DNA from: Mesotaenium endlicherianum
Lineage: Eukaryota
Direction of reading: 5' to 3'
Assembly (NCBI GenBank): GCA_009602735.1
Contig: WELA01003606.1
Coordinates: forward strand, 391,653-439,016
Length of the DNA stretch: 47,364 nucleotides
In this document: positions 4,453 to 45,232 of the stretch, piece by piece
Layout: every line of letters starts with the position of its first letter
Numbering within the stretch: the first letter of the stretch is position 1
Position numbers and translations under genes: made by a program
The notes under the pieces: generated by a model
The model's input: only the letters and a program-made list of their open reading frames with translations
Databases searched by the model: none
What the model was told of the DNA's origin: nothing

Positions 4453-4498
4453 TGTAATGAATCAGTATATTAGTTGATATAATATTCATTTAAATATA

Positions 4499-7400: not shown

Positions 7401-7542
7401 GTCTAAATATGTCATGAAATACCTCATTCAATGGAAGGGTTACGATGCCTCTGGGGACACTTGGGAATTTAAGGACCATTTGACCAATGCCAAAGAAGCG
7501 TTGAAACGGTTTCACCTTTGGGCCGCTGGAGCCCCTTCATAA
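4499..7542 (+). pseudogene. Ty3/Gypsy pol: RT - RNase H - integrase - chromodomain
   Basis: RT motifs ([32 protein letters not shown]), RNase H (TDASD...ELLAI...TDH), integrase (H-H-C-C, SMDW, SDRD, QTER, GPY), chromodomain YEVEEVLD...YLIQWKGY...TWE; a few stops/frameshifts. Confidence 0.95.
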
Positions 7543-7807: not shown

Positions 7808-7909
7808 GTAAACAGGAGCGAATCCACTATACTAATAATAACATACTTCCTGCAATCCCTATGACAAAGGTCCACATCCTACTAACTTGTGCCCTGGTTA
7901 CATGTACAG
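7808..7909 (+). other. Putative intron directly upstream of the extra ORF
   Basis: AAG|GTAAAC donor, TACTAAC branch point (7880-7886), CAG|G acceptor just before ATG 7911; same signals at 18964-19070. Confidence 0.65.
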
Positions 7910-7910
7910 G

Positions 7911-9173
7911 ATGGCTCCCACCACACAAAAGGAGGACAGAAAGCGCAAGGCAGAAGAAGCCAGGAGGACAATGGAGCAATACCAGAAGGAGCTGGCGGCG
8001 ACGTCCCTCACCAGGAGAGAACAAGAGAGGGTCCGCAGACAACAAGAGGCGGCAGAAGAGGCACAAAGGAAGAAGGATCAGAAAGCGAAAAACCTCAGGA
8101 AAGCTGAGGAGGCGAGAAGGAAGAAACAACAAGAAGAAGCGGTAGCGGTAGAGGAGGAGAAAAGGAAAAAGATGGAAGCGGACAAACAGAAGAGCTTGGC
8201 CACTTACAGGTATACTGTGGTGGGTGGCCAAAACTTCGATAACCTGAAAGAAGCATTGTTGGCAGCCCAGGAGATCAACAAGCTGGAACAGACAACACTG
8301 CTACAGAGGGAAGGAGCTGCAGCACTGGATAGGTACACCGAGACACACACTGGTGTGGTCCTTTACGAAGATTATGCTAAGATGGTGGGCTATACGGCAG
8401 AGCAGGCCCGGTACCTTGCAGATGACTCAGAAGACAAGCCGGTCTCCATACCAGGAATAGTGGGAGATCAGAGACTCATCCGGATGGTGAGCATGCGGCC
8501 CGATAGCTTTAAGGATACGGTATTCTACCTCACACTACTGCCAGCTTACAATGAAGTAGAGAGAAGGAGCTAGGAGTACTTGGCCAGGGAAGCAGGACAG
8601 CAGATGTTCTCTCCCCACTGGTTCCCGTGTAAACTGAGGAAGGCTGAGCACGGACCCCAGTACTACCAGCAGCCAACAGACTGGAGGTGGATGACCGTCA
8701 CAAATAAGAAGCAGGAGTGTGATCGAGCCCAACCGGATGACTTCCACTATGGCCTAGACGGCTATCTCATCCTACCACCTCACATTGCCCCTTGGGATCC
8801 CAGGCTGAATGGATGCCTGAGCAATATGAATGCAGAGACCAAGGAGCATAGGAGGAGGGGAAGAGACTACTTCTCTAAGGGAAAGCATGCCTTTGTCAAA
8901 TGGGCAAAGAATGCAGGCCGGATAGATATCAGCAGGCTGAAGGCCAAGCAACCTCCAGCGCGCCCTAAGAAAGGGAGGTCGGTAGACTACTCCATGTCTA
9001 CTAGGGAGCAGGACGACTTAGTGGACGAGACCCCTACTCTCTCCGAGGAGGAGGATGAGGAGGATNAAACGATGAAGAAGAAGAACAAGGCAGAGGAGAA
9101 GCATCAGCAGCTGGTACTCAGGATACCCAGGGGCAGGCAGGGGTCTTTATCGAGGGGCCTGAATCTTTATTAA
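7911..9173 (+). pseudogene. Family C extra ORF downstream of pol (unknown function), copy 2
   Basis: ORFs 7887-8573 and 8580-9173 are in frame, split by TAG where the other copy has TGG; highly similar to the 19072-20274 protein. Confidence 0.8.
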
Positions 9174-12540: not shown

Positions 12541-13205
12541 TTAAGTTCAGCATGCTGAACTTTAGTCAACATTCAGTCTGCTGGACTTTATATACTTATC
12601 AGTTTAATGACTCAGCCGAGAGCAGCAGGCTCAAGTCAACTTAGGTTAGCTTCTTGGCACATTCTTTGACAGCCAGCTGACTTCCATACTCGATAGCAGC
12701 AAACTGCCTAGATATGCATCTAAGTGTGATATGCTAGATGAACGGCCAGATGACATCCTTGGGATGGATGGCGATTCGGGATGATGGGAGATGGTGGTGA
12801 ATTTGGTTAACCGAGGTCCTACCAACGTGGTTAACTCCCGGGTAAGCGGTGCCATCGCACTTGCCATTGAACAGTAAATTCATTCCATGTACATATGTTA
12901 GACATTGCTTTCGAGTTCGGCATTCGGAAACAAGGCCAACTCTCTTGTACTACTTACTGAGAGATATTTGAATCCAAGGCGAGAAGCCATTGATACGCAC
13001 TGTCTTCTAGCTTTGCTTATGTATGAGTTCACTGATTGCATTATTGATGCTCGTTTACGTAAATTTGACTTGCGAGTATTGTCCACCGCTAGTACGTCTG
13101 TCTTTTGCTGTTTCATCAGTTAACGAAAAATACCATAAAGATTACTCGCTGATATAAAGATCTTTGTTAATTGTTAATCGTCTATTGGTAAGTCGATTCA
13201 TTTAA
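12541..13205 (+). repeat. 5' LTR of family C copy 3 (first ~55 bp missing)
   Basis: Direct repeat of ~21035-21697. Confidence 0.9.
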
Positions 13206-13238
13206 GTGGTATCGACACAATTATCACAGTAGTCGTGT

Positions 13239-16200: not shown

Positions 16201-18922
16201 ACTACTTCGCAAAAGTACGACATAATTATTCATGAAGTTACTTTGATTAATTATGAGATGATAACTTAATTAATCATTGTTATTTTAATTGTCACAGATT
16301 TTGGATTTTAATGCACAGTCACAGATTTTGGATTTACGACCAGTCGTTTATAGGAACAAACAGTTGTAAAAGTCAAACGACACATAATATGCAAAGCGAC
16401 TTTGCATCCGAGCGGATTCAAACCCGCGACCCGTCGTTTGAAACGTTCACACCTAACAGCTTGGCAAAGTGGTTTTTATAACTACCGATTCATGACGAAA
16501 AGCATGTGTACGCGACATCGCAAACAGTCGCAACTTTTTGGAAAGTCGCAAGAACGCGAAAACGCCCGTTTGGCGCGAAACGGTTTTTCAAAAACCGTCA
16601 AAAAGTCTCCATACGGTCAAACAGCGCGTTTCGAGCATTCAGCCGAAATGGGTTGTACCCCTTCGCCTGTTTTCGTTGACATGAATCTGTGCTTTAAGTG
16701 GTGACTCGAAGCACTCCAGTGCCTCACGTCGTGCAGGTATAAATACGTGCAGAGTCATTGTGAGTGCAACTCTCAGAAGCACACATTCTACGTTAGTTTT
16801 CATTTTCGCTTTTTTGAGGATTTGTCAATTTGCACAAGTATATAGATTTTCTTTCCACTTCATTTAAATATTCCTTGAATACCGAGGAAAGATCCTCTCA
16901 AAAAGCAGAAACGTTACAGTCATGGACACTCTGAGAAGAAATCAGTTATATGCTAAAATGAGCAAGTGTAATCTCTTTAAGGAAAGTATTGAATTCTTGG
17001 GCCACGTTGTCAGTAAGGAAGGCATCATTGTGGATCCTACGAAAATCCAAACCATAAGGGACTGGCAAATATCGGAGTCTGTCTCAGAAGTCAGATCCTT
17101 CCTTGGGGTTGGCTAACTAATACAGGAGATTCATTGAAAATTATTCTACAAAGGTCAGTAAACTGACTGACCTTACTAAGAAGGGCATAGGGTATGTGTG
17201 GGGGGAAGAGCAGCGAGCTGCCTTCCAGACCCTTAAAGATGCTCTTTGTTTTGCCCGAGTCTTAGCTGTGTATGACCCCAGCAAACCTGTGAAGGTGGTT
17301 ACTGATGCTTTTGACTTTGCCATGGGTGCTATTTTGTTGCAGCCTGCTGACAAAACCAAAAAGGATGGTACGGTAGAGCAAGAGTGGCACCCGGTGCTGT
17401 ATGAGTCTATGAAATTCAACCCACCTAAAATTAACTACTATGTGCATGATAAAGAGCTGCTTGCTATCATTCATGTGCTCAAACAGTGGAGCGCATACTT
17501 ACATGGTAAAGCTTTTAAAGTGATTACATATCACCTAGCTCTGACTCACTTTCATAAGAAGTCCAAGCTGTTGAGGAGGGAGAACCGCTGGAGCCAGATG
17601 CTGGAGCAATTCCAAGTCCAGATTGACTACAAACCAGGGAAGTTGAATCCTGCTGATGCACTCTCTAGAAGACCTGACTTGCAAGGAAGGAACTTTAGTC
17701 AGCATGCTGTAGACAATGTTCTTTGTGCACTCACTTCACTAAAGGTGAAAAAGTCCTTCCTGGAACAACTTAGGAAAGCTTACCTTTCTGACCCAACATT
17801 TGAGTCCAGCCCACCGATAATGTGTGTCCTGCTACTGCACTCGGGTATCGGCTAAAAGGAGGGGTCTGGGTGATTGAAACCACCTCAGGCAGGCTGAAGC
17901 TGGTCATTCCTAATAACTTGGAAATAAGGTCACTCTTATTGAGTCAAGCACATGACAGTTTGCTGGGTGGGCATTGGGGCAGGCAAAAACTGTTGGCAAA
18001 CTGGCAAAACATTATCATTGCGATGGGTTGCCTCGGGAGGTCTTGAAATATGTTAAGTCTTGTGATCAGTGTCAAAAAATTAAGTCTAGGCACACACCAC
18101 TCGGGGGGCTATTACAACCACTACCCATCCCACCTGGACGCTGGAAAACAATATCCATGGACTGGGTGGTAAAACTACCAAGAATTGCCAATGGGCATGA
18201 TTCTATACTGCTAGTAGTGAATAAACTGACAGAAATGGTCATTTTCATCCCCACCACTGTCAAAGAAACTGCCCTTAAAACTGCGAGACAATTCTACAAC
18301 CATGTAGTATGCCAACATGGACCACCCTCTAATATTATTTCAAACAGAGATTCAAAAGTTACCTTTAAGTTCTGGAGAGCTTTAATGAGATTAATGGGAG
18401 TCACACAGCTGCTCAGCACAGCAAACCACCCTCAGACTGATGGGCAGACTGAAAGATCTAACCAAGTTTTGCAAGAGGTGCTGAGAGCATATATTGACCA
18501 AAAACAAGATAATTGGGATGACCAGTTGCCTCAAATTCAGTTTGGAGTCAACAGTTTGGTGCACGCATCAACGGGAAAGACTCCTTTTGAACTCAATCTG
18601 GGCAGAGGCCCTAAGTCTTCTTTAGATGTACTAGGGGAGTCTTTAACTCACCCTAACGCGATTGACAATTTGGTCTCTTTCTAGTTAACTCAGGAGTTTG
18701 CTGACACCTTGTGAGATTCCAACACAATCTGCACAAAGTTTAGGAAAATCAACCAAAATACGCTAATCAACACCGTCGGGAGCTGACATTCTCAAATGGC
18801 ATTTGGTCAAACTGCATTCTCAACACCTATACCTGCCTGGTGTGATCAAGAAAAAGCTTGGTTCGGTCTGGGTCGGTCCATATTCAGTGCTGCGCCGTGT
18901 CGGTCTGAATGCTGACAAGCTG
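13239..18922 (+). pseudogene. gag-pol of family C copy 3 (Gag, zinc knuckle, protease, RT, RNase H, integrase; chromodomain deleted)
   Basis: MVRTRSQ start, CYHCQQLGHYRKQC, protease AFVDKGAS...DIVLG, RT FLDD interrupted by family E at 16005, RNase H and integrase fragments; many stops. Confidence 0.92.
16005..16918 (+). mobile_element. Family E solo LTR-like insert, copy 2
   Basis: TGTAGCG...CGTTACA; TSD GTCAT (16000-16004, 16919-16923); RT reading resumes after it; TATAAATA near 16738. Confidence 0.9.
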
Positions 18923-18963: not shown

Positions 18964-19070
18964 GTAAAAGGGAACAAACCTACCCTCCTAATACAAATAT
19001 ATTTCTCTTCCTGCATCTCCTGCGACAAAGATTGAGATCCTACTAACTTGTGCCCTGGTTGCATGTGCAG
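18964..19070 (+). other. Putative intron upstream of extra ORF (copy 3)
   Basis: AAG|GTAAAA, TACTAAC (19041-19047), GCAG|G then ATG at 19072. Confidence 0.65.
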
Positions 19071-19071
19071 G

Positions 19072-20274
19072 ATGGCTCCCACCACACAAAAGGAAGATAG
19101 AAAGCGCAAGGCAGAAGAAGCCAGGAGGACGATGGTGCAATACCAGAAAGAGCTGGCGGCGACGTCCTTCACCAAGAGAGAACAAGAAAGGGTCCGCAAA
19201 CAACAAGAGGTGGCAGACGAAGCACAGAGGAAGAAGGAGCAGGAGGCAAAAAATCTCAGGAAAGCTGAGAAGGAGAGAGAGAAGAAACAACAAGAAGAAG
19301 TGGCGGTAACAGAGGAGGAGAGAAGGAAGAAGGCTGAAGCTGAGAAGCAGAAGAGCCTGGCCACTTACAGATGTACTGTGGTGGGTGGCCAAACCTTTGA
19401 TACCCTGAAGGAAGCATTACTGGCAACCCAGGAGATCAACAAGATGGAACAGAAAACAATGCTACAGAGACAAGGAGCTGAAGCTCTGGATAAGTACATT
19501 GAGACACACACTGGTGTGGTCCTCAACGAAGATTATTCCAAAACGGTGGTGTATACAGCAGAGCAGGCACGGTTTCTTGCAGATGACTCGGAAGATAAGC
19601 CAGTATTAGTGCCTGGCATAGTGGGGAATCAAAGACTCATCAGGATGGTCAGCATGCAGCCCAATAGCTTTAAGGATGCAGTATTTTACCTGACACTATT
19701 GCCAGCCTACAATGAAGTTGAGAGGAGGTGCTGGGAGTACTTGGCAAGGGAAATAGGGCAGCGGATGTTCTCCCCCCACTGGTTTCCTTGTAAGCTGAAA
19801 AAAGTTGAGCATGGGCCACAGTACTACCAGCAGCCCACAGACTGGAGGTGGATGACCGTCACTAACAGAAAGCAGGAGTGTGATCGGGCCCACCCAGATG
19901 ACTTTCGCTATGGGCTAGACGGCTACCTCATCCTACCACCTCACATTGCCCCTTGGGACCCCAGGCTTAATGGATGCTTGAGTAATATGAATGCTGAAGC
20001 TAAGGAGCACAAGAGGAGGGGAAGAGACTCTTTCTCTAAGGGGAAGCATGCCTTTGTCAAATGGGCAAAGAATGCAAGCCGGATAGATATCAGCAAGCTG
20101 AAGGCCAAGCAACCCCCAGCTCGTCCTAAAAAAGTGCGGTCAGTATATTTTTCCATGTCCACCAGGGAGCAGGATGACTTAGTGGACGAGACCCCTACCC
20201 TCTCAGAGGAGGAAGATAAGGAGGATGAGGAAGAAGACCAGGACAGAGGAGAAGCATCAGGAGCTGGTTCTTAG
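19072..20274 (+). CDS. Family C extra ORF: charged coiled coil + unknown Trp/Cys/His-containing domain + acidic tail
   Basis: 400 open codons, conserved with 7911-9173. Terminal TAG corresponds to CAG in copy 2, so the ancestral frame probably extended further (same frame as ORF 20524-20748). Confidence 0.75.
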   Translation: MAPTTQKEDRKRKAEEARRTMVQYQKELAATSFTKREQERVRKQQEVADEAQRKKEQEAKNLRKAEKEREKKQQEEVAVTEEERRKKAEAEKQKSLATYRCTVVGGQTFDTLKEALLATQEINKMEQKTMLQRQGAEALDKYIETHTGVVLNEDYSKTVVYTAEQARFLADDSEDKPVLVPGIVGNQRLIRMVSMQPNSFKDAVFYLTLLPAYNEVERRCWEYLAREIGQRMFSPHWFPCKLKKVEHGPQYYQQPTDWRWMTVTNRKQECDRAHPDDFRYGLDGYLILPPHIAPWDPRLNGCLSNMNAEAKEHKRRGRDSFSKGKHAFVKWAKNASRIDISKLKAKQPPARPKKVRSVYFSMSTREQDDLVDETPTLSEEEDKEDEEEDQDRGEASGAGS

Positions 20275-24882: not shown

Positions 24883-24898
24883 CTCAGCATATGATACT

Positions 24899-25899
24899 TG
24901 TCATGATTTATTGAGTCGAGGTTGTCGTATAAAATCCAAGCTCCACATGTGCAGAACATCAACCTAGGAAGGCCGACTTTGCATTGACTTTACGCATCCG
25001 TATGTTGACCTTTTCTAGATTTCCAAGTCACCGACGTGTAGCGCGTCGAAGCATCTTCCGAATGGCACCAATTTTGCGTCATTTGGTCGAGTATCGAGCG
25101 AGATAGGTGCGATCTAGTCCGCGTCACCTACGGGTCCCTAGCGAAACTTTCCTAAGGCCCAATTTGTGACTCAATGTCCCCGAAGGTGACATTGTTGGCT
25201 CTTCGTGACCCCAAGCTTTGTGCGCACAAATCCGCGAGCCCCTTAGCCTACATAAGCTTTGCATTTCCATAGTATATGTGCATCATTAAGGCTATAACTT
25301 GGTGACTGCATCACCTACTCCTAGAGGAAGCTTCCTCAATTTCCAGATCCACTTTTGAGGCGCTATCTAGGTAGAATCACCCAAGGTAAGCTCGGCCAAT
25401 GAGGGACACGTAGCATATGCTACGCACCTTGCTTTGATTGGTTTGAGTTATGCTTAGCCTATAGGAGTGCTAGTACATGCCTTGTACACATTAGTGGACA
25501 CAGGAGAGCCTCCTAGAGTGACTACATGCACTGGATCCGCCGCATACCCCACCGGATTTCCAGGAGTATAAGTATTAGAGATGTCCCTAGAAGAGACATC
25601 TTTTAGAAGTCCATTATGCCAGGTGTAAGCAACAGAGTTTATCAGTAAAGCTTACACTTTTATCTCTTGTGTTTTCAGGACCACTTAGTTACTCTCTTGT
25701 GAAGAGCAAGCCCTCCAGGCTTCCAATCACTTGAAGAATTTCACAAGTGGTGAGCAAAGTCATAGCTTAAGCCCTTGCCATAGGACTACTCTGAAGATCA
25801 TGATGTGCTTCCAGTGATCTTTTGGGCCATACTTCATTAGTTGTTTTCCTAACAGATTACAATCTTTAGGTGCTCACTCTGGAGAGTACACATTCCTTA
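24899..25899 (+). repeat. Repeat A1 (1001 bp)
   Basis: Direct repeat of 36542-37500; TATAAGTA at 25567. Confidence 0.95.
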
Positions 25900-25911
25900 C
25901 TTCTAAAAGAT
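25899..25911 (+). promoter_or_regulatory. Putative self-priming primer-binding site
   Basis: ACTTCTAAAAGAT is the exact reverse complement of ATCTTTTAGAAGT at 25598-25610, 31 nt after the TATA start; no TGG-type tRNA PBS here. Confidence 0.75.
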
Positions 25912-25947
25912 CTCTCTTTTCCTGCAAGCAATTAGAACCTTCAGCGT

Positions 25948-27138
25948 ATGCCTACCCGTAGTGGGCTTTCTTATCAGCCATACTACGAAGGGGTTAGTGG
26001 AGAAGACTCAGACTCAGATCTCAGCACTATCACTGAACCCGCTGAAGAAGAGCAACCTGCTCTCCAGCACACAGCAATTGCTTCTGAGCCATCTCCCCAG
26101 TGGGCTCACTACGATTTCTGGTATCCCATGGCAAGTGATCACGAGGTCAAGACTGACAGGTCTGCCTACCGCTCCAGCGGTAGGCCAGGCATCTGTGATC
26201 TAGAAGATACCATCTCGGAGTTTCAGGCTGACTTTGCGGCTGCAAAGCTCAAGACACCCACGCTAACTAAGCGCGACGGCTTCGACACGCTTATGCGCTA
26301 CCTCTCGCACGAGGCCCGCGACACCTTCCGTGAGAAGGAGGCCGAGCTCCGGACCCGCACTGAGCTTGTAGGTGACCCACCAGTGGCGACCCTGCTAGCT
26401 GATCCAGTGCCAGCCTTCTGGAACATCCTGAAGACAGATTTCCAGGCTGCAACTGAAGAGAAGGTGTACGAGCTGCACCATTTCTTCCGACGCAAGAACA
26501 AGACTATCCGCATGATGTACCGCCGCTTGGTGCACCTCCGCCGCGATGTCGGCACTGTCACTGACCGGGAGGCCGCGGAGATCTTCTTGCGCGCCGTCGA
26601 GCCGCGTCTGAGGGAGAGGGCCGTAGTCCCCCTCATCGACCGCCACGGTTCAGAGTATTCTCTGGAGCAGGCCTACCTCTCCGTTGAGAAGCAGAGCTTG
26701 GCCGCCGCACGGAGCAACATTAGCGATCGTGTGGGTTTAGCATCCACGGGCGTGCGCCAGGAGGCCTCAATGCTGCCGTCTTCTACGACGCGCTCGACGC
26801 CTACCCGCCAGCCCCTGTCGCAGCAGCAGCAGCCTCAGCGCTCTCAGTTGCCCCAGCAGACGCAGCAGCGCGGAGCTATGCGAGGCCGCATTTCCATGGC
26901 TGCCACTACGAGCGATCCCTGCTGGTCCTGCGGGAAGACGGGCCACTCACGCCAGAACTGCACTCTCGCGCAAAATGGCAAGCCCAGCGACTGCATTCTG
27001 GCAAGGCCAGCCACCTGCAGATCATTTGTCTGCAGGAAAAGCGCGACGTCAAGAACGGACGCGCTCGCGACAGCCCTACGCCTTCAACAGGACAGCGAGG
27101 CGCACGCAACCCTCGTACGGGTGGCCGCCCCGCGATGA
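25948..27138 (+). CDS. Gag-like protein with CCHC zinc knuckle
   Basis: 396-aa ORF; CWSCGKTGHSRQNC; a probable second knuckle is broken by a frameshift near 26995. Confidence 0.85.
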   Translation: MPTRSGLSYQPYYEGVSGEDSDSDLSTITEPAEEEQPALQHTAIASEPSPQWAHYDFWYPMASDHEVKTDRSAYRSSGRPGICDLEDTISEFQADFAAAKLKTPTLTKRDGFDTLMRYLSHEARDTFREKEAELRTRTELVGDPPVATLLADPVPAFWNILKTDFQAATEEKVYELHHFFRRKNKTIRMMYRRLVHLRRDVGTVTDREAAEIFLRAVEPRLRERAVVPLIDRHGSEYSLEQAYLSVEKQSLAAARSNISDRVGLASTGVRQEASMLPSSTTRSTPTRQPLSQQQQPQRSQLPQQTQQRGAMRGRISMAATTSDPCWSCGKTGHSRQNCTLAQNGKPSDCILARPATCRSFVCRKSATSRTDALATALRLQQDSEAHATLVRVAAPR

Positions 27139-29850
27139 TAGCAGCTACGGCCACGACGGACGCCGCATTGATGCCTGGAGCCGAATACTGCAGCTTCGAC
27201 GACGTCAGCGATGCCCTCGTGGAGGCCAACGCGGAGATTGCTAGACTCCGTGGCCTCGTCGACGTCCATAACTATGACGCGTGCGAAGCACTCCTCGCGT
27301 CCGCTCCACTATCCTACGCCACGGCACTGACAGCTGGCGCATGCACAGCTTCAGCGCACACATCAGGCTCAACGGCAGCGCCGCAGCCCCGCGCACGTCC
27401 GCATTACGACGTAGGGCCCGCTGCTAGAGCTGCAGGCGCCCGCACAGGCAGCTCTGCTAGCCCTGTGCGCAACGCTCTGACAGTTGTCAGCAGCAACAGC
27501 CGGAGTCCCGACAGACTGCCGGATGGCAGGCTGCACGACTGCGCGGTTGCGCCATCTTCCGACGCAAGCTCGCGCGCACGCGGGCCAGCCCGCAAGTCAG
27601 CGGAGGCCCCGACAGAGCCCCTGGCTTGCGCTTCCCTGCTGGCACCAGCAGGCCTCCCGTCAGCTCGCGTAGCGACAGCTGGCAGGCAGGGACGGGGGCA
27701 CCTGGCGGCGTGCACGGCTACAGCTGGTCCGGTCGCAGCCTCCCTCTCCGTCCGTGCGGCACGCCCGTGCGCAGCTCTGCGCACAGGCAGGGATAGCCGG
27801 TCCCCGCTGGCTGCTGCAGACAGCAGGCTCCAGCAGAATCCGCCATGTGGCACGTGCACGGCAGGCGAGGCCGCCTGTGCCGACAACAGCATGCACGCAC
27901 GCACGCTGGCTCACACGCGCGCCCAGCGCACTGCGCTGCCAGGTCCACGTTGCACCCGGCGACGCCACGACGTCGTCACAGCGGCAGCTGCAGCTGCGCA
28001 TAGCAGCTGCACCCACGCGCTGCCAAGTGGCGCGTGCGCGCAGGTCTGCACGGCCAGCGCAGCGACGGCCGCAGCGGCCGCCACCCTCGGTCAGCAAGGG
28101 GGGGTCCTGACTGCGCTGTGCGGCCGGATCGCCGGCAAAAGCGCCGACAGCGCACCCGCAGCTGCGCACATCCAGGGCTCAGCCCCTGCCGCACACGTGC
28201 TGCCACTTGGCACGCGCGCATGGCCCGGCTCAGCCCGTACAGATCCAGCGGTCGGAGCAGCCACCCGCAGTCAGGGGGGGGCTATACCCACTGCGCCACG
28301 CGGCCGGATGTTCGATCGCGGTGCCGACGGCCCGCGCACGGTTGCGCACAGCCAGGGCCTAAACCCTGGCTGCGCACAAAACCCCGGCAGCAGCCCAACG
28401 CAGGCTGCCGGGGGGCCGGTTAGCCCACGCATCGGGGGGAGGGCGCTGCGATCTTTGCCCGGGGCAGCCGAGATAGACGGCGCCACCGGTCCAGTGACCC
28501 TGCCCCTCGGCCCCAGCAGCCACCAGGGGGCGCCACCTGGCAGCCTCCTGGCAGCCCCGACCGCGCCAGCAGCTGCAGCAACTGCTGCAGCCGCGGCCGC
28601 ACACGCGCCGGGGTCCGCAACTTTTGCGGCCGAACCCGCGACCGGCTGCACGGCAGGCCTTGCGGCAGGCTGCGCAAGGAGTCCTGCGGCAGACAGTGCG
28701 GCAGTTTGCGCGGCAGGCTGCGCAGCAGGCCTCGCGGCGCGCCCTGCGGCAGACAGTGCGGCAATCTGCGCGGCAGGCTGCGCGGCAGGCGCGACGGCAG
28801 TTCCCGCCACCGGCTGCGCGGCAGGCGCGGCGGCAGATCTCGCAACGGGCCCCGCGGCAGGCCTCGCGGCAAGCTGCGCGCACGGCGCTGCAACAGGCCC
28901 CGCGGCAGGATGCGCGGCAGGTTTGCCGGCTGCGCCAGCAGCGGCCATTCTGGCCTGCTGCGCACGCGCGCAGCCACTCGTCAACCCCTCTGCAGTTGGG
29001 CGCGCGAGCCGCGAGCACATGCTCGCAGCACCGGCCAGTCGGCCCGTTGTTCCGCAGAAGCGCGCCGGGCCAGACCAGGGACGCCGGACAGAGGAGGCAC
29101 CGCGGCTGCCCCGTTCCTTCCGCATCCTAGAGCCCTCCACGACCTCAGCAGAGCCGACGCCACATGCGCTCGCTTCGCCTATGACGACGGTGCAGCTCAG
29201 CGCCGAGGTCATCTCTCTAGCACTGCACCGCATGCCGGCGGTCTCCTTCGCAGAGCTCGGCGTCTCCATGGAGGCAACGAGGCAGGTTGCTCAGCTGATG
29301 CTCCAGTCGCGCAGAGCCACGCTGCGCACCGCCGCCAGGTGCCCGACGGCCGATGCCGCCACCGCGGTGCGATCCGCGCCCGCGCGCCCTGCGCATGAGC
29401 GCAGGATGATCAGCACTCCTAACGCCGCGTTTTTGGATAATTCGCAGGGGATCGTGCTCGTCAACACCCAGGCGCCGCAGCGCATCATGTTCGACACAGG
29501 CGCGCAGCCGCTTCTCATCAGCCTCCGCTACTTCCGTCAGCTGGGACTCTCTTCCGCCGACTTGGAGGACTCTCCGACGCGCATTAACACCGCCGTCGGC
29601 GCGTCCAAGACCGTCGCCGGCCGCACGAGGTTAGCGCTACTGTCTGCGCCCAGGCACGGCAGACGAGACAACCATCCATCGCCACGCACTCGTCACTCCT
29701 TCCAAGTCCTTTGATGTGCTCCTAGGGCAGGACGTGCTCTTTTCCATTGGCGCTGCGGTCAAAAACTGGGCGGAGCGCGTCTTCTATCGTCCCAACTGGA
29801 GGACAGGGGGGACGCGCACCGCATCCTTGCCCCTTGACATTGTCGATCGC
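27135..29850 (+). pseudogene. Ala/Pro-rich spacer followed by retropepsin-like aspartic protease
   Basis: IMFDTGAQPLLIS (~29485-29520), then DVLLGQDVL after a frameshift (~29713). Confidence 0.8.
28640..28930 (+). repeat. GC-rich coding minisatellite (12-nt GCGGCAGGC-type period, 60-nt higher-order duplication)
   Basis: CCTGCGGCAGACAGTGCGGCA occurs at 28683 and 28743; encodes AAGC/AAGL/AADS repeats. Confidence 0.8.
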
Positions 29851-31772
29851 CGCCCAGCAGTGTCCGCTCTTTATGGCTTCATGGGGCTGGGCGATGGCCG
29901 GCAAGTGGTCAAGACCGATAAGGACGGGCCCGAGGACGAGGAGATCTCTGTGGGGGTGGACCTGCTCGAGCCACAAGACGAGGAGCCGGACCTACCTAGT
30001 GCCGAGTTCCACCTCACGCCTCAGCAGCAGGCGGATGTCCTGGCAGCCCAGGCCAGGGAGCAGATCCGCATCTGCATTGCCCACAGCGCGATGATGCGGC
30101 AGATGGCGGACGATGCCACTGAGGCCCTCGCCACGGCCAGCACAGCCATCGCTGCCGCCGCCCTTGCTCGCGGTGCGGCCGCAGCGCCTACGGCTCATCA
30201 GGGGGTCTCGGCCTCTCGCGGCGAGCCGTCCGCGAGGATCGACGTCCGCGTTTGCCACGACGTGCCTGTTGGCGTGGCCATTCAGTACGGTATGGACTCT
30301 CAGCCGCCCTCTCACAACGCCTCGCATCAGACCGGCGAGACCTGGCCTTGCACCACGGCATCCGAGGACGAGGTCATGCGGCAGGCAGCTTCTCCTGGCA
30401 GATCCAACGAGCAGTCCCTCAAGAGTGAGGAGGAGACGCAGTGGGAGCGACTGCCAGAGGCATCCGTCGAGATACTCAGCGCGGAGCCCCCGCCAGCTGC
30501 GCCTACGGCACGCAGGCAGCGCGCACCTACTGGTTTGCCCGGCTTCAGCGCACCCAGCTAGCCCATGACACACGACTGGTCCAGCAGGGCTCGCACCGAC
30601 GCCGCTGGACCCAGCCGTCCGACTGGCTCAAGTGCTCGACGAGCCACGAGTGTCGCCGCATTGCGCATTTGTTTGCGACGAGCCGGGATGCCGCGGCCTC
30701 CTCTAGCGCTGGCACACACTCCATACAGTAGCCAGTGCCCAGGCTCAGCGTCCGCGAGCCACCCCGCACGACCCCGTCTATCTGCGCCCATCTGACCTAC
30801 ACACATTGCACTAAGCCAACCATCGGGCCCGCTCGAGAGACCACTCCTCTCCGCGAGACGAGCCGCTCCCGATCGCTCACACCCCTTTGCGAGACGCGAG
30901 AGGTGACTCCCCTCCGCGAGACGCGAGCCTGCTCCATCACGCGGCCCTACGACAACAGGGAGCGCACGCCTCCTTACGATGACACGCGGGCCCGCGGGGA
31001 CACGCCGCCATACAACGATACTCGAGATCGATGCCGCACTCCGCCCTTTCGGCCCCTCTCAGCTGGCGACGACGCTCAGTCTTCTTCCGAGGCGCATTTT
31101 GTGATGCTGGCCCCTACAGCTCCGCACGCCAGCGTCCCTTGCAACCACATCGCTGGCGACTGTCCCTTCAGGTCACCTCCTCCCAAGGTGGCCCGCACCG
31201 ACAGCAGGCCGCCCAGTCGCCACCCATCTACAGCCGCCGCACGCACACGGCTCATGCCTAGTCTCCGGCAGCCCCGAGACGCGCCCGTCCCACAAGGGCA
31301 GCCCCGGCCGCGAGTCCAGCTGGCCCCTCGCCAGTTAGTTTGGTCCCCGCAGGAGGTCGACAGCTCCGAGCGCTCCGTCTGCACAGTCCCCTCTGCAGAC
31401 ATGCGCGCACGCCAGCGGGCCTACTTCGACCCGCACCCCTACTTGACTCAGCGTCCCGTTCTCGACCAGCTGGCCCACGCGGCCTCGCACCAAACTGACC
31501 GCGCCCAGCGCGACAGGTGGCAGCAGCTGTGCGTGGCCTCGGCCCGACGTCAGGCCCGCGTTGTCTCTCCGACAGCCCTGCAGGATGCGCGCCTGCGGTG
31601 GCGCACCTACCAGGACCACGCACGGGAGGAGCGTCCGCAGCCGCTCACTGACCGCATCCCCAGCCTTATGCGTGACTACGCAGACCGTGCTGTGGCCGCC
31701 CTCCGCGTGGCGCCACATCAGCACAACGGCAAGCGTACCTTCCCGCCGCCCGCTTAGCCCGGCACCCCCGCA

Positions 31773-33054
31773 ATGGGGTGTCGCCCACTTCCGACTCCTA
31801 TCTGCGCAGACGCTCTAGACGAGCGGCCCGGCGGCATCGTCCTCATCGAGCTCTTTGCCGGCATTGCCACCGAGTTGCTCGCGACCTTACAGGCCGGCAT
31901 CTCGGTGCGCCGCTATGTCTACGTCGATCCCGATCCTGAGGCCCAGCAGGTGGCCCGTCGGCAGATGGCGTTGTGCCACGAGCGGTTCCCAGACCTCCTT
32001 CCCGCGCACGCATTCCGCCGCGCTCGGACAAACTGGCCCATGGACATCCGCGACATCACCGTCGAGCATGTCACCCGACTTGGGCCCATTGACCTCGTCA
32101 TCGCCGATTGGGAGTGCCAGGGCTTCTCCAGAGCCGGGCGTGGCAGGGCGCTCAACGATCCCCGCACGGCCCTCTTTTGGCACTNACGATCCCCGCACGG
32201 CCCTCTTTTGGCACTTACTCCGCGTCCTCAACATTGTTGAGGATCGCCAGCCGCCTCACACACTCGCGTGGGTCCTGGAGAACGTGGCCGCGCGCCACGA
32301 TCACCGACCCGATGTTAGCGCCGACTTCGCTCTTTGCAGCAGCTTCGTCGGCCGCGAGGCCGTCACCGACGCTGCCCAGATTGGTTCCTTCGCGCACCGC
32401 GTCCGCGCCTACTTCACGAACCTGGCGATGCCAGGTACTCTCGAGGCGTTGGCCGCCTCTCATCAGCCTCACGCGCGAACCGTCGACTCCATCCTCGATG
32501 CCCCTTGTCTGGCCCAGCGCGTGACTGCACTACCACATCCCTCCATGGTGCGGTGTGAGGTCCTGCATGACGTCACTCGCGCGCTGCCGACTTTTGTCAG
32601 CCGCTACGACAGCGACGCCTTCGTCGGAGATCAGCGCGAGATGGTCATCGACCTGGAGACTGGCATGTTTGACAGGCTGCGTCCTGCGGAGATGGAGCGT
32701 GTCATGGGCTTCCCGCCACATCTCACACAGGTGGACGGTCTCACTGAGGTGAACCGCATTCGCCTCTTGGGGCAAGCAATTGACGCCAACGTCCTCACAT
32801 GGATTCTGCTGCAGACGCAGGCCTTGGCGCCTCTCTACGCCGCAGCTCGGCATCCCGAGCTGCCTCGGCCTGCCGATGATATGGACGATGACTCCACCGA
32901 CGATGACAATCCGGCCCCGCCCGGCACAACGTGGCATCCTCAGCGCGCAAGGCCTGCACTGCAGGCGCGCGCCCGCCCCCCCTCCCCACCGCCGCGCAGG
33001 GAGGACTCTGGTTTGCTGGTGGGGGGACGGCGGAGAGAGGAGTCCTCACAGTGA
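31773..33054 (+). CDS. DNA (cytosine-5)-methyltransferase domain within the polyprotein
   Basis: Motif I IELFAGI, III DIRDI, IV DLVIADWECQGFS (Cys 32115-32117), VI VLENV, VIII HRVRAYF, IX EMERVMGFP, X RLLGQAI. The two ORFs join in frame once the 30-nt duplicate + N at ~32185 is removed. Confidence 0.93.
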
Positions 33055-33150
33055 CCCAGGGAGTCCCGGTCACCCAAGGAGTCCCAGTCACCCTTTCTTT
33101 TTCCTTGCTCGCAGGCAGACGGTGCCAGGCAGCTGGCCGCAGCTGCCACG

Positions 33151-34700
33151 GTGCAAGTACCCGCGGCAGGCCGAGCGCCAATCGGTGCAGGGCAGGTGAC
33201 ACCTACAGCACCACAGTCTACCCCAGCGGCAAGACAGGTGGCTCCAGCTGCAGGCCAGGCGACGCCACCAGCTCCACTGACATGGAAGCTGGGGGGGACA
33301 CTCACCAAGGCGCAGGCTGCACAGTTGACGGCACTGCTGGACGAGAGGCGCAGCACCAACTTTGCCAGCCGCATGCACGATCTTGGGCGCTACAGGGGGG
33401 ACTCCATGCGGATTACTCTCACGTCGCAGGAGCCCGTTTTCCTGAAGCGTTATTGCTACAGCCACTTTGAGGATGGCTTGATCAGCGCGCAGACAGGCAA
33501 GCTGGAGGACAGCCGGCTCATTCGGGAGTCCTCCTCTCGCTATGCCGCACCCACGGTCATGCCGACCAAGAAGGATGCCTCGGGCAACTGGTCCGAGAAG
33601 AGGATGTGCGATGACTATTGTAGGCTGAACGAGGTCACCGAGCAGGACAGATATCCTATGCCGACGCCTGACGAGATCTTTGACGACATTGGCACGTGCA
33701 CTTGGTTCTCAGTGCTGGATCTGCGTCAGGGCTTCAACCAGATTCCCATCGCCGAGGAGGACCAGCATAAGACGGCGTTCTGGGGAGCACAGCGGCTCTA
33801 CGAGTGGGTGGTGATGCCGTTTGGGTTGAAGAACGCGCCAGCTACCTTTCAGAAGGTGATGGATAAGGAGCTAGCCGGGCTGTCCTTTGCCCGATGCTAC
33901 ATTGATGACGTGCTCGTCTTCAGTCAGACGTTTGAGGAGCACGTGGCGCACATCACTGCTGTCCTGGACCGCTTGGAGGGCGCTGGGCTCAAGTGCCATC
34001 CAGGCAAGTGCACTTTTGGGACCCGCGAGGTGGAGTACCTTGGCCACCTGCTCTCCTCCAGCGGATTGGCACCCCAGCTGGCGAAGATCTTGGCCATCAC
34101 AGGCATCCCACCTCCTACAGATCTCTCGCAGCTGCGGGCCTTCCTCGGCATCGCCAACTACTACCGCCGCTTCGTGCCAGGGTTCAGCGAGCTAGCCAAG
34201 TTGCTCAACGACTTGCTCCGCAAGGGCGTTGCCTACGTTTGGGGACCAGAGCAGCAGGCGGCATTCGATAAGCTCAAGGAGCTGTTGGTGAGCGATCCTG
34301 TGCTTCGGCGTCCTGACTACGCGAAGCCCTTCATCCTCCACACCGACTGGTCGCAGGCAGGGCTCGGCGCTGTGCTGGTGCAGGAGCATGACGGCTTCGA
34401 GCATGTGGTGGCCTACGCCAGCCGCAGCAACAACCGCGCGGAAGGCAATTACGGCTCCTACGAGGGGGAGTGCCTGGCAGCGGTCTAGGCGATCGTGCAC
34501 TTCAGGCACTATCTCTACGGCACGCACTTCCGCCTGGTCACCGACCATCAGCCACTTAAGTGGCTCATGACGTCGGAGCGCTTGACCGGCAAGTACGCAC
34601 GGTGGGCGCTTATCTTGCAGGAGTACACCTTCGACGTGCACCACCGTCCAGGCTCGACCAACCTGGACGCTGACGGTCTCAGCCGTAACCCGCTGCCCTC
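33151..34700 (+). pseudogene. Ty3/Gypsy reverse transcriptase + RNase H
   Basis: DLRQGFNQ, MPFGLKNAPATFQ, YIDD, LRAFLG; RNase H HTDWS...ECLA...TDHQPL...ADGLSR; one TAG (likely from TGG) at 34486. Confidence 0.95.
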
Positions 34701-34940
34701 CTCGAGGGATCTCACTGTGGCCCGCCACGATGAGGATGAGCCAGTGGCCTGGCACGCGGCGGCCTTCCTGGCCTTCACCGTGGACGGCGATGTGCGGCCC
34801 GCAGGGCTCACTGGCCTGGACATGGTGACCGTCACCACTTGGCGATTGGCCCTGGCAGCGGCAGAGGATCAGGACAGCTGGCAGCGCGGTCCCGAGGACG
34901 TGTGGGACGACGCCCCAGTGCTGCAGTACGTCACGGCCAN

Positions 34941-36203
34941 ATCACGGCCAAGGAGTTGGCACCTGATGTCAGCGCACGCGAGCGGGACCGCATCCTCAGG
35001 CGCAGCCGCGACTTCATTTTCATGGAGGGGCGTGTGCGGCGCGTGATGGCGAACGGCTCCGTCCTGGTGGTCCCTGAGCCTGCCATACGCAGTCAGCTGG
35101 TGCGCCGAGTGCACGAGTCCCTCGGGCACTTCGGTGTCAAGCGCACCCTCAGTCTTCTTCAGGCCGAGTACTGGTGGCACGGCATGACTAAGGTCGTCGC
35201 CGCTGTTGTCAGCAGCTGCACTCTCTGCGACCGTGTGCGCTCGAGCTTCACAGCGCGCACCGTTGCCCTCAGCCCCCTTCCTATTCAGGGGCTGTTCTAC
35301 AGGTGGTCGCTTGACTTGGCTGGAGAGCTGCCCAAGTCTCGCCAGGGCAACCTCTACGTCTTGGTGATGATTGAGCACATGTCCAAGTGGATCGAGCTCG
35401 TGCCCTTGCCCAACAAGGTCAGTGAGGGGATCGCTCAGGCCTTCCTCCATCAGGTCCTTAGCCGTTTTGGCGGCTGCGCTGAGGTGCTGACCGACCAGGG
35501 CAAGGAGTTCCAGGGCAGCTTTCAGAAGCTGCTGGAGCGCTCTATGATCGACCACCGCACCACCTCCCGCGATCATCCTCAGGCTGACGGCCTCGCCGAG
35601 CGCATGGTGCAGACCGTCAAGCTAGGGTTGCGGAAGTACTGCCTTGCCCACGACCGTACCCACTGGGACGACGCCCTCCCTTGGCTGGCGATGGGGTACA
35701 GGTTCAGTAAGCAGGCCTCCCTGGCCTCGCACTCTCCCTACTTCCTTCTCTACAGCCGACAGCCCATCCTGCCAGCAGCAGCCAGGACTGTGGCCGAGAA
35801 CGTCTTGGACTTGGACAGTCCCGAGACATGGAGTGCTCTTATCGGGCAGCGTGATCAGCTCTTTCGGCGCCTGATGCCCATGGCCATGGATAACCTCAGT
35901 ATCGCACAGCATCGGAACACACTGAGGTACGCCATGACTCGTGGAGGAGCCTATCATCCGCGGGTGTTGCAGTTTTCCGCAGGTGACTTCGTGTACCTGC
36001 GACGCCAAACGAAGAACACCCTCGACACCAGCAGCTCGCCGGTCATCCTGCGCGTCAAGCGTGCCTTGGCGTCAGGAGTCCTGAAGCTGGAAGGCGCAGA
36101 TGACCGTCTTCACAAGGACCACACGAAGAACTGTGGGCCGTGCCACCTTCCTAACCTTGACTTGCAGGTCCGTCCCCGCGACGCGCGGCCGCCCAAGGAC
36201 TAG
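34941..36203 (+). CDS. DDE integrase (HHCC + rve core)
   Basis: HESLGHFG...CTLC; SLDL, TDQG, LAERMV; no tyrosine-recombinase motifs seen. Confidence 0.93.
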   Translation: MTAKELAPDVSARERDRILRRSRDFIFMEGRVRRVMANGSVLVVPEPAIRSQLVRRVHESLGHFGVKRTLSLLQAEYWWHGMTKVVAAVVSSCTLCDRVRSSFTARTVALSPLPIQGLFYRWSLDLAGELPKSRQGNLYVLVMIEHMSKWIELVPLPNKVSEGIAQAFLHQVLSRFGGCAEVLTDQGKEFQGSFQKLLERSMIDHRTTSRDHPQADGLAERMVQTVKLGLRKYCLAHDRTHWDDALPWLAMGYRFSKQASLASHSPYFLLYSRQPILPAAARTVAENVLDLDSPETWSALIGQRDQLFRRLMPMAMDNLSIAQHRNTLRYAMTRGGAYHPRVLQFSAGDFVYLRRQTKNTLDTSSSPVILRVKRALASGVLKLEGADDRLHKDHTKNCGPCHLPNLDLQVRPRDARPPKD

Positions 36204-36389
36204 GCGTGCCAGATCTGTCACAGCACTGGCCAGGAGGCCAAGATGCTGCTCTGCGACAGCTTCAACCTCGGCTTCCACATCGGCTGCCTCGACCCGCAGC
36301 TGGCCCGCGTGCCAGTTGGAGATTGGTTCTGCGGAGACTGCACTGAGCTAGCCTTAGGCAGCGTACACAGCCTATCAGCTAGATGCTGA
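36204..36389 (+). pseudogene. PHD finger, in frame after integrase (separated by one TAG)
   Basis: ACQICHSTGQEAKMLLCDSFNLGFHIGCLDPQLARVPVGDWFCGDC fits C4HC3 with the fourth Cys changed to Phe; not in the ORF track. Confidence 0.9.
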
Positions 36390-36394
36390 GAGCT

Positions 36395-36403
36395 GGGGGG
36401 GGA
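36395..36403 (+). promoter_or_regulatory. Putative polypurine tract (G8A) preceding B1
   Basis: Lies just after the pol stop and immediately before the repeated segment. Confidence 0.65.
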
Positions 36404-36539
36404 ATTAAAACATTTTCGACTTGACTCCCTTTTTGGCTATAACGCCACATGTATTATAGACTCCATTGCAGCACAGCCTGCTTGCCTATGATGTGTTGCT
36501 TATGCCTATGGTGCACACTCGACCTCGTAACGCACGACA
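36404..36539 (+). repeat. Repeat B1 (136 bp)
   Basis: Direct repeat of 37501-37636; ends CACGACA. Confidence 0.95.
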
Positions 36540-36541
36540 AC

Positions 36542-37500
36542 TGTCATGATTTATTGAGTCGAGGTTGTCGTATAAAAACCAAGCTCCACATGTGCAGAAC
36601 ATCAACCTAGGAAGGCCGACTTTGCATTGACTTTACGCATCCGTATGGTGACCTTTTCTAGATTTCCAAGTCACCAACGTGTAGCGCGTCAAAGCATCTT
36701 CCGAATGGCACCAATTTCGCGTCATTTGGTCAAGTATCGAGCGAGATAGGTGCGATCTAGTCCGCGTCACCTACGGGTCCCTAGCGAAACTTTCCTAAGG
36801 CCCAATTTGTGACTCAATGTCCCCGAAGGTGACATTGTTGGCTCTTCGTGACCCCAAGCTTTGTGCGCACAAATCCGCGAGCCCCTTAGCCTACATAAGC
36901 TTTGCATTTCCATTGTATATGTGCATCATTGAGGCTATAACTTGGTGACTGCATCACCTACTCCTAGAGGAAGCTTCCTCAATTTCCACATCCACTTTTG
37001 AGGCGCTATCTAGGTAGAATTACCCAAGGTAAGCTCGGCCAATGAGGGACACGTAGCATATGCTACGCACCTTGCTTTGATTGGTTTGAGTTATGCTTAG
37101 CCTATAGGAGTGCTAGTACATGCCTTGTACACATTAGTGGACACAGGAGAGCCTCCTAGAGTGACTACATGCACTGGATCCGCCGCATACCCCACCGGAT
37201 TTCCAGGAGTATAAGTACTAGAGATGTCCCTAGAAGAGATTATCAGTAAAGCTTACACTTTTATCTCTTGTGTTTTCAGGACCACTGAGTTACTCTCTTG
37301 TGAAGAGCAAGCCCTCCAGGCTTCCAGTCACTTGAAGAATTTCACAAGTGGTGAGAAAAGTCATAGCTTAAGCCCTTGCCATAGGACTACTCTGAAGATC
37401 ATGATGTGCTTCCAGTGATCTTTTGGGCCATACTTCATTAGTTGTTTTCCTACCAGATTACAGTTTTGAGGTGCTCACTCTGGAGAGTACACATTCCTTA
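36542..37500 (+). repeat. Repeat A2 (959 bp)
   Basis: Copy of A1 with a 42-bp deletion near 37238. Confidence 0.95.
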
Positions 37501-37636
37501 ATTAAAACATTTTCGACTTGACTCCCTTTTTGGCTATAACGCCACATGTATTATAGACTCCATTGCAGCAAAGCCTGCTTGCCTATGATGTATTGCTTAT
37601 GCCTATGGTGCGCACTCGACCTCGTAACGCATGACA
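37501..37636 (+). repeat. Repeat B2 (136 bp), element 3' end
   Basis: Ends CATGACA, followed by TSD TACT. Confidence 0.95.
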
Positions 37637-38470
37637 TACTTTTATTTAAGAATACACTTCAATCAACTAGGTGAAGCAAAGCAAGCAAAGAAGACACGAG
37701 CGTAATATATTCACCTACCCAGTGCAAGTGAAAATAAATCACAACAAACTGTCATGCAAGCAATCATCTGACTTCACAATCAACAATTGAAGACATGCAT
37801 GGACATACCTATACTCACAATAGTCCTTCCAGTTGAAAGACACAATAGAGCAGCTCATTACATGCACACCACACCCAAATCAAACAGCCTCCTTTCGAGG
37901 TCAAACAATGAAAGAATGTCATTAAGGCTCAGCCTACTGAACAAAGCCTTTTCTCCTTCTCTTGGTCTTCAACTCCTGCCGTGCTCACATCTTGAAAGCT
38001 CCTCACAAGCAATTTCTTGTGACTTAGGTACCTGATCAAAATTCAGCGAACTGAAGGAAGAGGGTGACCAACTGATTTGATGGCATTAAATGCCCTTACA
38101 AGATGAGTAGCATCAGGTTAATGAGCCCAAGAAAATTTTAAATTAACCACATTTTCTGAACACACTAAGTTCAAAGAAACATATGGTTTTGAGCAATATG
38201 CTGGTCACCTCAAGCAGGTCCCTGATGTGCCATGCACTATTGCTACCAATCCCAACTTATGGTAGTGTACTTACTCAGTTAGTACGTACACTCGCTCAGG
38301 CAGTGTACTGCAACTCACAGTCCACACCAGTCAGTCACTGATGCTCCTGATATTAATGCAGTACATACATAGGATGTGGCAGTGTATGACTCAGTTAGTA
38401 CATACACTTGCTGTTGAGTATGCAGGTAAGCACAGCTTACTGAATACTCCTAATACACATCCCATCTTCC

Positions 38471-44294: not shown

Positions 44295-45232
44295 GGGTAA
44301 ATTGCGAAACTACCACTCTCAAGTTTTTTATTGCAAATCTACCAGTTACTTCCAAACTAATTGCAAAACTACCACTCGCACATGTAAATGGCGTCCACGT
44401 AGGACCTACACGAATAAATGACGTGCCACATGATTTCGCATGGTACCCTATCTGACACACCATTTCTCTCCTTCGTTTCCAAAATCTTCCACCACCACAT
44501 TTGTAACTGACCCACCTCCACGAAACAAACTGCCCAAGGACGCCACAGGTATTTCTTCAAACCTATTTCTTGCGCCTTATTTTTAAAACCCTGTATGTTC
44601 ACAAACTATATCCATCGCATTCCCTGCTATTTCACATACCAAACGGAGTCACAACAAGCTAATTGTGGCGACTCACTGGTAAGCAAAGGGGTTAGTTATT
44701 AGTGGCACATTTCCATTGATGTTGCTTGTGGCTATTCCTTCGTCTTTCTACGCATACCCCACCGTTTTTAACTGTGCAACCATGGGATCTGAAGGATTTT
44801 AGTTACAATCGTACTTGGGTGGAGAAGGAATGTAGAGTTAGTATAAGCAAGTTCACCCCCCAAGCTACATCCGCCAAGATTTTAACCACCATAAGAAGTA
44901 GCTTGTTTTAGCAATGAGTTAGGCCTTGGGTGTGCGTCCTCTATTGCCAAAATTTTGCGTCCTTGGGCAGTTTGTTTCGTGGAGGTGGGTCAGTTACAAA
45001 TGTGATGGTGGAAGATTTTGGAAACGAAGGAGAGAAATGGTGAGGCAGGTATGGTCCCGTGCGAAATCTTGTGGCACGTCGTTTATCCGTGTAAGGCCTA
45101 CGTGGACGCCATTTACATGTGCGAGTCTGGTGCAAGTGGTAGTTTTGCAATTAGTATGGAAGTGAGTGGTAGATTTGCAATAAACAAACTTGAAGGTGGT
45201 AGTTCTTCAATTTACCCTTTTGCAATTTACCC
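44295..45232. mobile_element. Mutator-type non-autonomous element (MULE-MITE)
   Basis: ~250-bp imperfect TIRs (44295-~44543 / ~44955-45232) starting GGGTAAATTG; 9-bp TSD CAATTCTTT / CAATTTTTT (8/9). Confidence 0.82.

Follow-up and report, generated by a model that had tools for sequence, protein, structure and literature searches.

How an LTR retrotransposon that carries its own cytosine methyltransferase, and whose terminal repeats are split, might complete its replication cycle, and what the enzyme might contribute, are the questions raised by a locus in Mesotaenium endlicherianum. We analysed a stretch of 47,364 nucleotides around it (contig WELA01003606.1, assembly GCA_009602735.1), hereafter the window; coordinates are those of the window, and features lie on its forward strand unless stated otherwise. 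The DNA methyltransferase (DNMT) domain sits between the protease and the reverse transcriptase (RT) of a 12.7-kb Ty3/Gypsy element (24899–37636). Comparison with Pfam gives the order zinc knuckle, aspartic protease, DNMT, RT, RNase H (RH), DDE integrase (IN) and PHD finger, and thus the Gag-PR-RT-RH-IN order with a DDE integrase that is expected of Ty3/Gypsy. The gag-like region (25948–27100) contains the zinc knuckle (zf-CCHC, E = 0.004, below the cut-off) and matches the gag of Klebsormidium nitens KFL_013780020, and the aspartic protease (FDTG, 29457–29630) also scores below the cut-off (PF13975, E = 5.9e-5). Stronger matches are obtained for RT and RNase H at 33274–34700 (PF00078, E = 3e-30; PF17919; PF17917), for the integrase with its H2C2 zinc domain at 35079–35900 (PF17921; PF00665, E = 1e-13) and for the PHD finger at 36204–36347, which forms the C-terminus of Pol (PF00628, E = 2e-10). 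The GC-rich linker between gag and protease includes a 12-bp tandem array (28623–28944) that reads as an Ala/Gly/Cys-rich repeat.

Is the domain a genuine C5 methyltransferase, and of which class? In the six-frame translation, the core motifs follow one another in the canonical order at 31830–32820 (I, ELFAGIA; IV, IADWECQGFS; VI, ENV; VIII, AHRVR; IX, EMERVMGF; X, LLGQAID), within a domain that spans 31773–32830 and retains the catalytic Cys, ENV and RxR. The original prediction had reported this order and the retention of Cys and ENV from the letters alone, and the PF00145 search that it proposed confirms the N half (E = 5.7e-6, 26.4 bits against a cut-off of 22); the C half had no match in the Pfam scan. 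The two halves are separated by an N at 32185 between two exact 30-bp copies (32155–32215), which we regard as an assembly gap artefact because relatives lack the insertion and continue directly from the N half into the C half. At 34940 the window has a further N gap, which the contigs of three DNA runs leave out. The best PDB matches of both halves are DNMT3A/3B/3C (E ~1e-5 and ~6e-5), and a family profile built from 32 relatives and both window halves (34 rows) ranks DNMT3A (E = 2e-27) ahead of DRM2 (1e-11) and HhaI (4e-10). For a natural relative, P0122, the predicted structure (pLDDT 94.5) also returns DNMT3A/B as its first fold matches. By sequence, profile and the relative's modelled fold, then, the domain is an unrearranged C5 cytosine methyltransferase of the DNMT3 type, nearer to DNMT3 than to DNMT1, DNMT2, DRM or the bacterial enzymes.

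A comparison with relatives and with human DNMT3A corrects the view that motif IV (WECQ) and motif X (LGQA) are atypical. We compared 116 relatives that have both DNMT halves, drawn from 161 proteins examined and including a few near-copies. At motif IV, W occurs in 102 of them, E in 64, P in 41 and the Cys in 115; motif X varies around G..D among the relatives, and human DNMT3A itself reads LLGRS there. Given these counts and the DNMT3A motif, both variants are normal for the clade.

The ends of the element are less conventional. It starts with TGTCATG, ends with CATGACA and is flanked by identical TACT tetranucleotides (24895–24898 and 37637–37640), so that TG..CA ends and a 4-bp target site duplication, as in other Ty3/Gypsy elements, are present in this one insertion. 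Two complete terminal LTRs between primer-binding site (PBS) and polypurine tract (PPT), however, are not found; the unit is permuted and the left LTR is split. Self-comparison resolves the termini into two repeats in the order A1-coding-B1-A2-B2. Repeat A1 (24899–25898, 1000 bp) begins with TGTCATG at the left element end and likely contains the promoter. It is followed at the other end by B1 (36403–36539, 137 bp, ending in CGACA), A2 (36542–37499) and B2 (37500–37636, ending in TGACA). A2 is 98% identical to A1 (divergence 1.9%) and has a 42-bp deletion over the predicted transcript start. Just past that start in A1, the segment 25620–25680 is intron-like, with GT..AG borders and a pyrimidine tract. 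A second, partial copy of the family, 7.7% diverged, lies on the reverse strand at 1–2656 and contains repeat A, the PBS and the start of gag, with an LTR nested at 877–1800.

The boundaries of these repeats coincide with candidate priming sites. The 13 nt directly behind A1 (25899–25911) are the perfect reverse complement of 25598–25610, the predicted RNA 5′ end. Complementarity of 12 nt is not attained at any of ~21,000 background positions, nor 13 nt in any of 200 shuffles, and both words of the pair are retained in the second copy (1–2656). The PBS, which abuts the end of A1, has no tRNA-type TGG; its arrangement resembles that of Tf1, with a 13-nt complement at the LTR boundary and a predicted start 31 nt behind a TATA-like box (TATAAG, 25567–25572). 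At the other end, a run of eight G residues (G8, 36395–36402), the putative PPT, abuts B1, and G-runs are likewise placed in relatives. The A2/B2 joint consists of the sequence that precedes the PBS followed by the sequence that follows G8, with nothing lost or added. B1 and A2 meet as element ends placed back to back around a 2-base spacer, GACA-AC-TGTC (36536–36545), which resembles a joined pair of attachment sites. Because PBS and polypurine tract bound it, the true LTR is B-NN-A.

These boundaries suggest how the cycle would run, and we consider it probable that a gag-pol element with split repeats of the form A-internal-B-A-B replicates via an end-joined two-LTR circle, which its DDE integrase would open at the internal palindrome. 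Transcription would start near 25598, and the RNA's own 5′ 13 nt would prime the minus strand at 25899–25911 in a Tf1-like manner. G8 would prime the plus strand, and ordinary reverse transcription would yield a linear cDNA with two B-NN-A LTRs. The ends of this cDNA, which would have no TG..CA, would then be joined to give the A/B joint. The integrase would cut after CA on both strands of GACA-NN-TGTC in the left LTR, and insertion with a 4-bp stagger would split that LTR into A-internal-B-NN-A-B. The DNMT, captured early in the clade, would most likely methylate CG sites of the cDNA, either ahead of insertion or in the course of it. The idea of a cDNA circle is well supported by the end sequences, independently of the DNMT. 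As expected of collapsed repeats, no metagenome contig shows the last A-B unit, and the support for the circle itself comes solely from the A/B joint of the window.

The joint and the TG..CA ends would be explained equally well if no covalent circle formed and, after the same priming, RT jumped from the right to the left end of the cDNA and copied B, with the integrase trimming at the internal palindrome. This route could also account for the single form of insertion observed: a circle has two such junctions, and cutting the other would give A-B-A-internal-B, which does not occur among the left ends available, so that the circle needs a bias that is as yet unexplained. All three left ends that we have (the window element, its second copy and the metagenome locus L018) are of the A-internal-B-A-B form, and one complete insertion with a target duplication, that of the window, is available. 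A precise extra jump and a precise stop would, however, be required in every cycle, and blunt end joining of LTR cDNA is common (PMC4372172). We therefore judge the template jump improbable.

The A-B-A-B layout is also shared with split-repeat elements that use a tyrosine recombinase, so that a DIRS- or Ngaro-like cycle has to be weighed, in which the RNA would extend as far as B2 and the inner B-A junction would serve merely as a template for restoring the ends. Our Pfam scan of ten frames matched rve and H2C2 and no recombinase, so the DIRS order is not that of this element. A DDE integrase, TG..CA ends and a target duplication are present instead, and such a cycle does not predict repeat boundaries exactly at a PBS-like site and a PPT. 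It appears very improbable to us.

The internal palindrome was also sought in distant relatives. From metagenomes we fetched 48 loci with a motif IV pattern, all of them collapsed contigs, and wherever RT or RNase H is present the DNMT lies behind RNase H. Sixteen of the 48 extend 500 nt or more beyond the pol stop and are testable. Thirteen of these 16 (~10 distinct families) contain the junction CGACA-GC-TGTC, in which a CpG immediately borders a perfect palindrome of 10 bases; the count is partly post hoc as the fixed 8-base motif was picked after the window and four relatives had been viewed. In 12 of the 13 loci a run of six or more G precedes the junction by 60–220 nt, and the junction is absent from 190,133 nt of the coding parts of those loci. 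The junction is missing from L004, L009 and L014 (the real tail of L014 is short). A scan for junctions with perfect arms missed the B1/A2 site of the window and returned noise.

This recurrence bears on the suggestion that the layout is a one-off, produced from a truncated normal LTR element and a solo LTR or by misassembly at the 3′ end. The window does have N gaps with artefactual duplications, and A2 plus B2 on their own resemble a TG..CA solo LTR. However, the junction recurs behind the PPT in 13 distant loci, the second copy has the same left end, a 4-bp duplication surrounds the whole element, and a corresponding layout is published for KnitGypsy-Dnmt3 (PMC5890265). This reading is largely refuted, and we regard it as extremely improbable.

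Returning to the proposed cycle, further traces of it appear in the relatives. In L018 a second occurrence of the sequence behind the junction lies 7 kb upstream; because an unrelated flank precedes it, it fits a left end. Inverted pairs of 12–15 nt exceed shuffled expectation in four of eight relatives (0/200 shuffles for L025, and 1, 3 and 8 for L047, L032 and L020), three of which have a TATA-like box ~30 nt upstream; in L002, L008, L018 and L038 the pair is not above chance. Because the metagenome loci are collapsed and those with RT or RNase H place the DNMT differently, the complete layout of the window type rests on the window and on a published figure legend.

That legend belongs to the description of KnitGypsy-Dnmt3 from Klebsormidium nitens (de Mendoza 2018, PMC5890265), a Gypsy element with a DNMT in Pol. 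The original prediction was right that Gypsy elements bearing C5 methyltransferases are known from Klebsormidium. Its further suggestion of a possibly novel pairing of the domain with split LTRs does not hold, because the domain and the split repeats are both in print for KnitGypsy-Dnmt3: the legend of Fig. 4c calls its repeats DIRS-type and its domains Gypsy. Later work (Morozov 2019, PMC6338049, and a 2025 survey, PMC12344493) repeats the finding and, as far as the available text of these papers goes, adds no mechanism. The window element shares with KnitGypsy-Dnmt3 the Gypsy domain set, the DNMT3 domain between protease and RT, the DIRS-like A-coding-B-A-B repeats and the RT clade; it differs in its host, in sequence (~50% identity in RT, 34–37% in the DNMT) and in the stops that flank its DNMT. 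It is a new member of the KnitGypsy-Dnmt3 kind, of a different family. The text of the 2018 paper offers no mechanism for the repeats and does not mention a primer site, PPT, internal junction or duplication; its supplementary figures may show more on the repeats. What looks new here is the working of the split LTR, with the self-priming site, G8, the exact joint, the TG..CA ends with their 4-bp duplication and the internal palindrome. In the full-text literature, which leaves aside subscription journals and Repbase Reports, we found no description of a self-priming site, an internal palindrome or a circle route for a DNMT-bearing Gypsy element.

Individual parts of the scheme have counterparts elsewhere. 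Tf1/Sushi elements and Tcn1 (Neumann 2019, PMC6317226) likewise have a PBS complementary to the 5′ LTR rather than to a tRNA; theirs are ordinary terminal LTRs with a chromodomain, whereas the window element combines a DNMT and a PHD finger with a putative attachment site inside the LTR. PAT, Ngaro, VIPER and SymbioDIRS-Dnmt3 share the A-coding-B-A-B layout and a proposed circular intermediate, and SymbioDIRS also carries a DNMT3, but they encode a tyrosine recombinase in place of the DDE integrase, protease, TG..CA ends and 4-bp duplication of the window element. Circles have been proposed for DIRS, with another enzyme (PMC7192593). Foamy virus and HIV-1 integrases are reported to cut the palindrome of joined attachment sites (PMC1180852, PMC4372172), as envisaged here. 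In those viruses it is the cDNA ends that form the palindrome, with the circle as a side route; the window element encodes its palindrome within the LTR, its cDNA ends would lack TG..CA, and integration would always depend on the joined form. We also considered Troyka (Kojima 2025, PMC12440569), which has unusual Gypsy-like termini, and rejected it on account of its CG..CG ends, 3-bp duplications, ordinary LTRs and restriction to animals.

How widespread is this kind of element? A HMMER search returned 391 clusters of relatives at E 0.001 or better. Among the best 150 of the 391, 48 also contain RT; in 41 of these 48 the DNMT follows RNase H, and in the other 7 it precedes RT. A PHD finger is present in 44 of the 150. 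Both streptophytes and chlorophytes have such relatives, in which the DNMT occupies one of two positions: K. nitens KFL_013780020 has zinc knuckle, protease and DNMT, and KFL_009030040 the order DNMT, RT, RH, IN, which is also that of Closterium; a Scenedesmus relative reads RT-RH-DNMT-IN-PHD. Tetraselmis is a further named organism with a DNMT relative. In some relatives (P0297, P0189) a chromodomain (PF00385) or a G-patch (PF01585) has been added to the DNMT-PHD polyprotein. A word-index search among long proteins with the C half of the DNMT gave no match, although the HMMER search did, and viral contigs contained no relative of the window RT.

The closest named RTs (~50%) are those of the liverwort Calypogeia, K. 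nitens and Closterium; the Calypogeia entries are gene models of RT alone, and we saw no DNMT joined to them. In a FastTree phylogeny of a subsample of 100 RT-RH rows, the window element groups with the elements of Klebsormidium, Closterium and Calypogeia (SH 85–87). This group is sister to the chlorophyte-type elements with RH-DNMT-IN order, and the whole is separated from other Gypsy elements with SH 97; the chromodomain Gypsy of the window falls far from the DNMT element. Resolution is poor in the DNMT tree, which places long branches together and does not settle whether one capture or two gave rise to the two positions of the domain.

The original prediction also treated the methyltransferase as part of a single polyprotein. 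The window copy is broken, with frameshifts near 27000 (in gag), 29642 (behind the protease) and ~30625 and with stops at 30559, 31755, 33052, 34486 (in RT-RNase H) and 36201 (ahead of the PHD finger). Other copies have a sense codon in place of the stop at 30559. The DNMT is flanked by in-frame stops at 31755–31757, after which an ATG follows at 31773, and at 33052, the latter between DNMT and RT, which share a frame. The latter stop belongs to a segment (33052–33114) that also holds a short tandem repeat and a pyrimidine tract. The tract ends in CAG, in phase with RT, and this CAG at 33114 may be a splice acceptor. Hence the statement that the domain is in frame but for single stops stands for the two flanking stops and fails on the protease side, where breaks at 29642, 30559 and ~30625 have to be bridged. 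The DNMT runs into RT in 13 proteins of relatives, and 12 of 43 further long proteins end 93–178 residues past the DNMT. A single polyprotein that includes the DNMT is thus likely ancestral, as some relatives read DNMT and RT through; for the family of the window it is unsure, given the flanking stops and the many relatives whose open reading frame ends ~100 aa past the DNMT. Six loci of the RH-DNMT-IN type (L002, L013, L020, L025, L046, L047) have a recurring frame break or single stop 300–500 nt upstream of RT, and this recurrence suggests programmed control of Pol levels.

Whether the enzyme of this family still works is a separate matter. The window DNMT departs from the consensus at 7 of 37 near-invariant columns, compared with 0–2 departures in 98 of the 116 relatives and five or more in only 6 of 116. 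One departure directly precedes the W of motif IV, where the window has aspartate and 116 of 116 relatives have glycine; we take this glycine to line the cofactor pocket. Contigs of run X1 (700 on the domain) show no majority difference from the window at 5 of the 7 positions, the motif IV glycine included, and the erosion thus seems to belong to the host family and not just to this copy. The stops at 31755 and 33052 are not among the majority differences either, a weak observation as they lie 15–18 bases from the edges of the compared stretch. We had considered the aspartate and the two flanking stops as private damage of the window copy, a notion that the X1 contigs do not support. Where the window does differ from the X1 majority (32 places), 20 of the changes are T or A against C or G, in CG (10), CHG (7) and CHH (3) contexts. 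Its own changes in the core DNMT, 15 non-synonymous and 9 synonymous, look neutral. This pattern reads as ordinary decay under host methylation after insertion, and the window copy of the DNMT is probably inactive.

Among relatives the enzyme is under purifying selection: dN lies far below dS in related metagenome loci (L002/L013, dN 0.003 and dS 0.091; L025/L046, pN 0.07 and pS 0.79), in agreement with the expectation that a functional domain would be kept and conserved by other members. That selection, together with the intact catalytic Cys, ENV and RxR, the coverage of the domain by contigs of three DNA runs and the unbroken passage from DNMT to RT in 13 relatives, could be taken to mean that the window family's DNMT is still an active CG methyltransferase made within one polyprotein. 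We regard this as unlikely, though conceivable, in view of the five departures shared with X1, the rarity among relatives of five or more, the two flanking stops (with the caveat on their position) and the lack of CpG depletion. The observed/expected CpG ratio is 0.8–1.1 in the coding parts of the element, compared with 0.27–0.43 in four neighbouring elements, and ranges from 0.29 to 1.18 across 25 related loci; the missing depletion could also be explained by recent arrival in this host. No match to the DNMT was listed for RNA runs. In one RNA run with the same species label as X1, of which 6% was read, 123 reads fell on the element; none of them covered the DNMT or exceeded 95% identity, and we treat this as uninformative about expression.

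For the clade as a whole, the most likely role of the DNMT, by analogy with SymbioDIRS-Dnmt3, is CG methylation of cDNA. Methylation of cDNA by a retrotransposon DNMT was proposed in PMC5890265, where SymbioDIRS-Dnmt3 methylates CG in yeast and the Klebsormidium enzyme gave no methylation in yeast, a result that was called inconclusive. The idea that the element methylates its own cDNA is doubtful for the host family of the window, judging by the erosion of its enzyme. That methylation might influence which junction is opened is speculation, based solely on the conserved CpG beside the palindrome. On balance, we lean slightly towards a broader scenario, in which an old and large clade of green-plant Ty3/Gypsy elements with DNMT3 and PHD domains has moved its attachment sites into an LTR palindrome, the circle has become the obligatory precursor, and the DNMT3 may mark this circle, via the conserved CpG, to shield it or to choose the junction.

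The accepted view is that the DNA inserted by retroviruses and LTR retrotransposons is linear and that two-LTR circles are by-products or a reserve. If the scenario is true, there is a natural lineage in which end-joined DNA is the required precursor of a DDE integrase, integration from circles becomes testable in algae, and a reason emerges for keeping an enzyme that marks cDNA. A possible link of LTR elements to circle-forming insertion sequences also comes into view. LTR finders that seek two terminal TG..CA repeats likely mis-annotate the whole clade, for which the 8-base junction behind a G-run offers a simple marker.

The surroundings of the element are rich in other repeats. Ordinary chromodomain Ty3/Gypsy elements lie at 4233–7542 and 2641–4246, with a second copy at ~12988–18922, and show strong CpG depletion (observed/expected CpG 0.29–0.36); we take their primer sites to be tRNA-iMet-like. 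One of them carries the second copy of the DNMT family within its gag region. An uncharacterised, coiled-coil-rich open reading frame of ~410 aa is present twice (7842–9173 and 19036–20274); it follows the chromodomain Gypsy pol and may be an extra open reading frame of that element. On the reverse strand, 9283–11171 contains two frames that resemble a piggyBac-type transposase, and 44295–45217 is a MITE-like inverted repeat with arms of ~260 bp around 410 bp.
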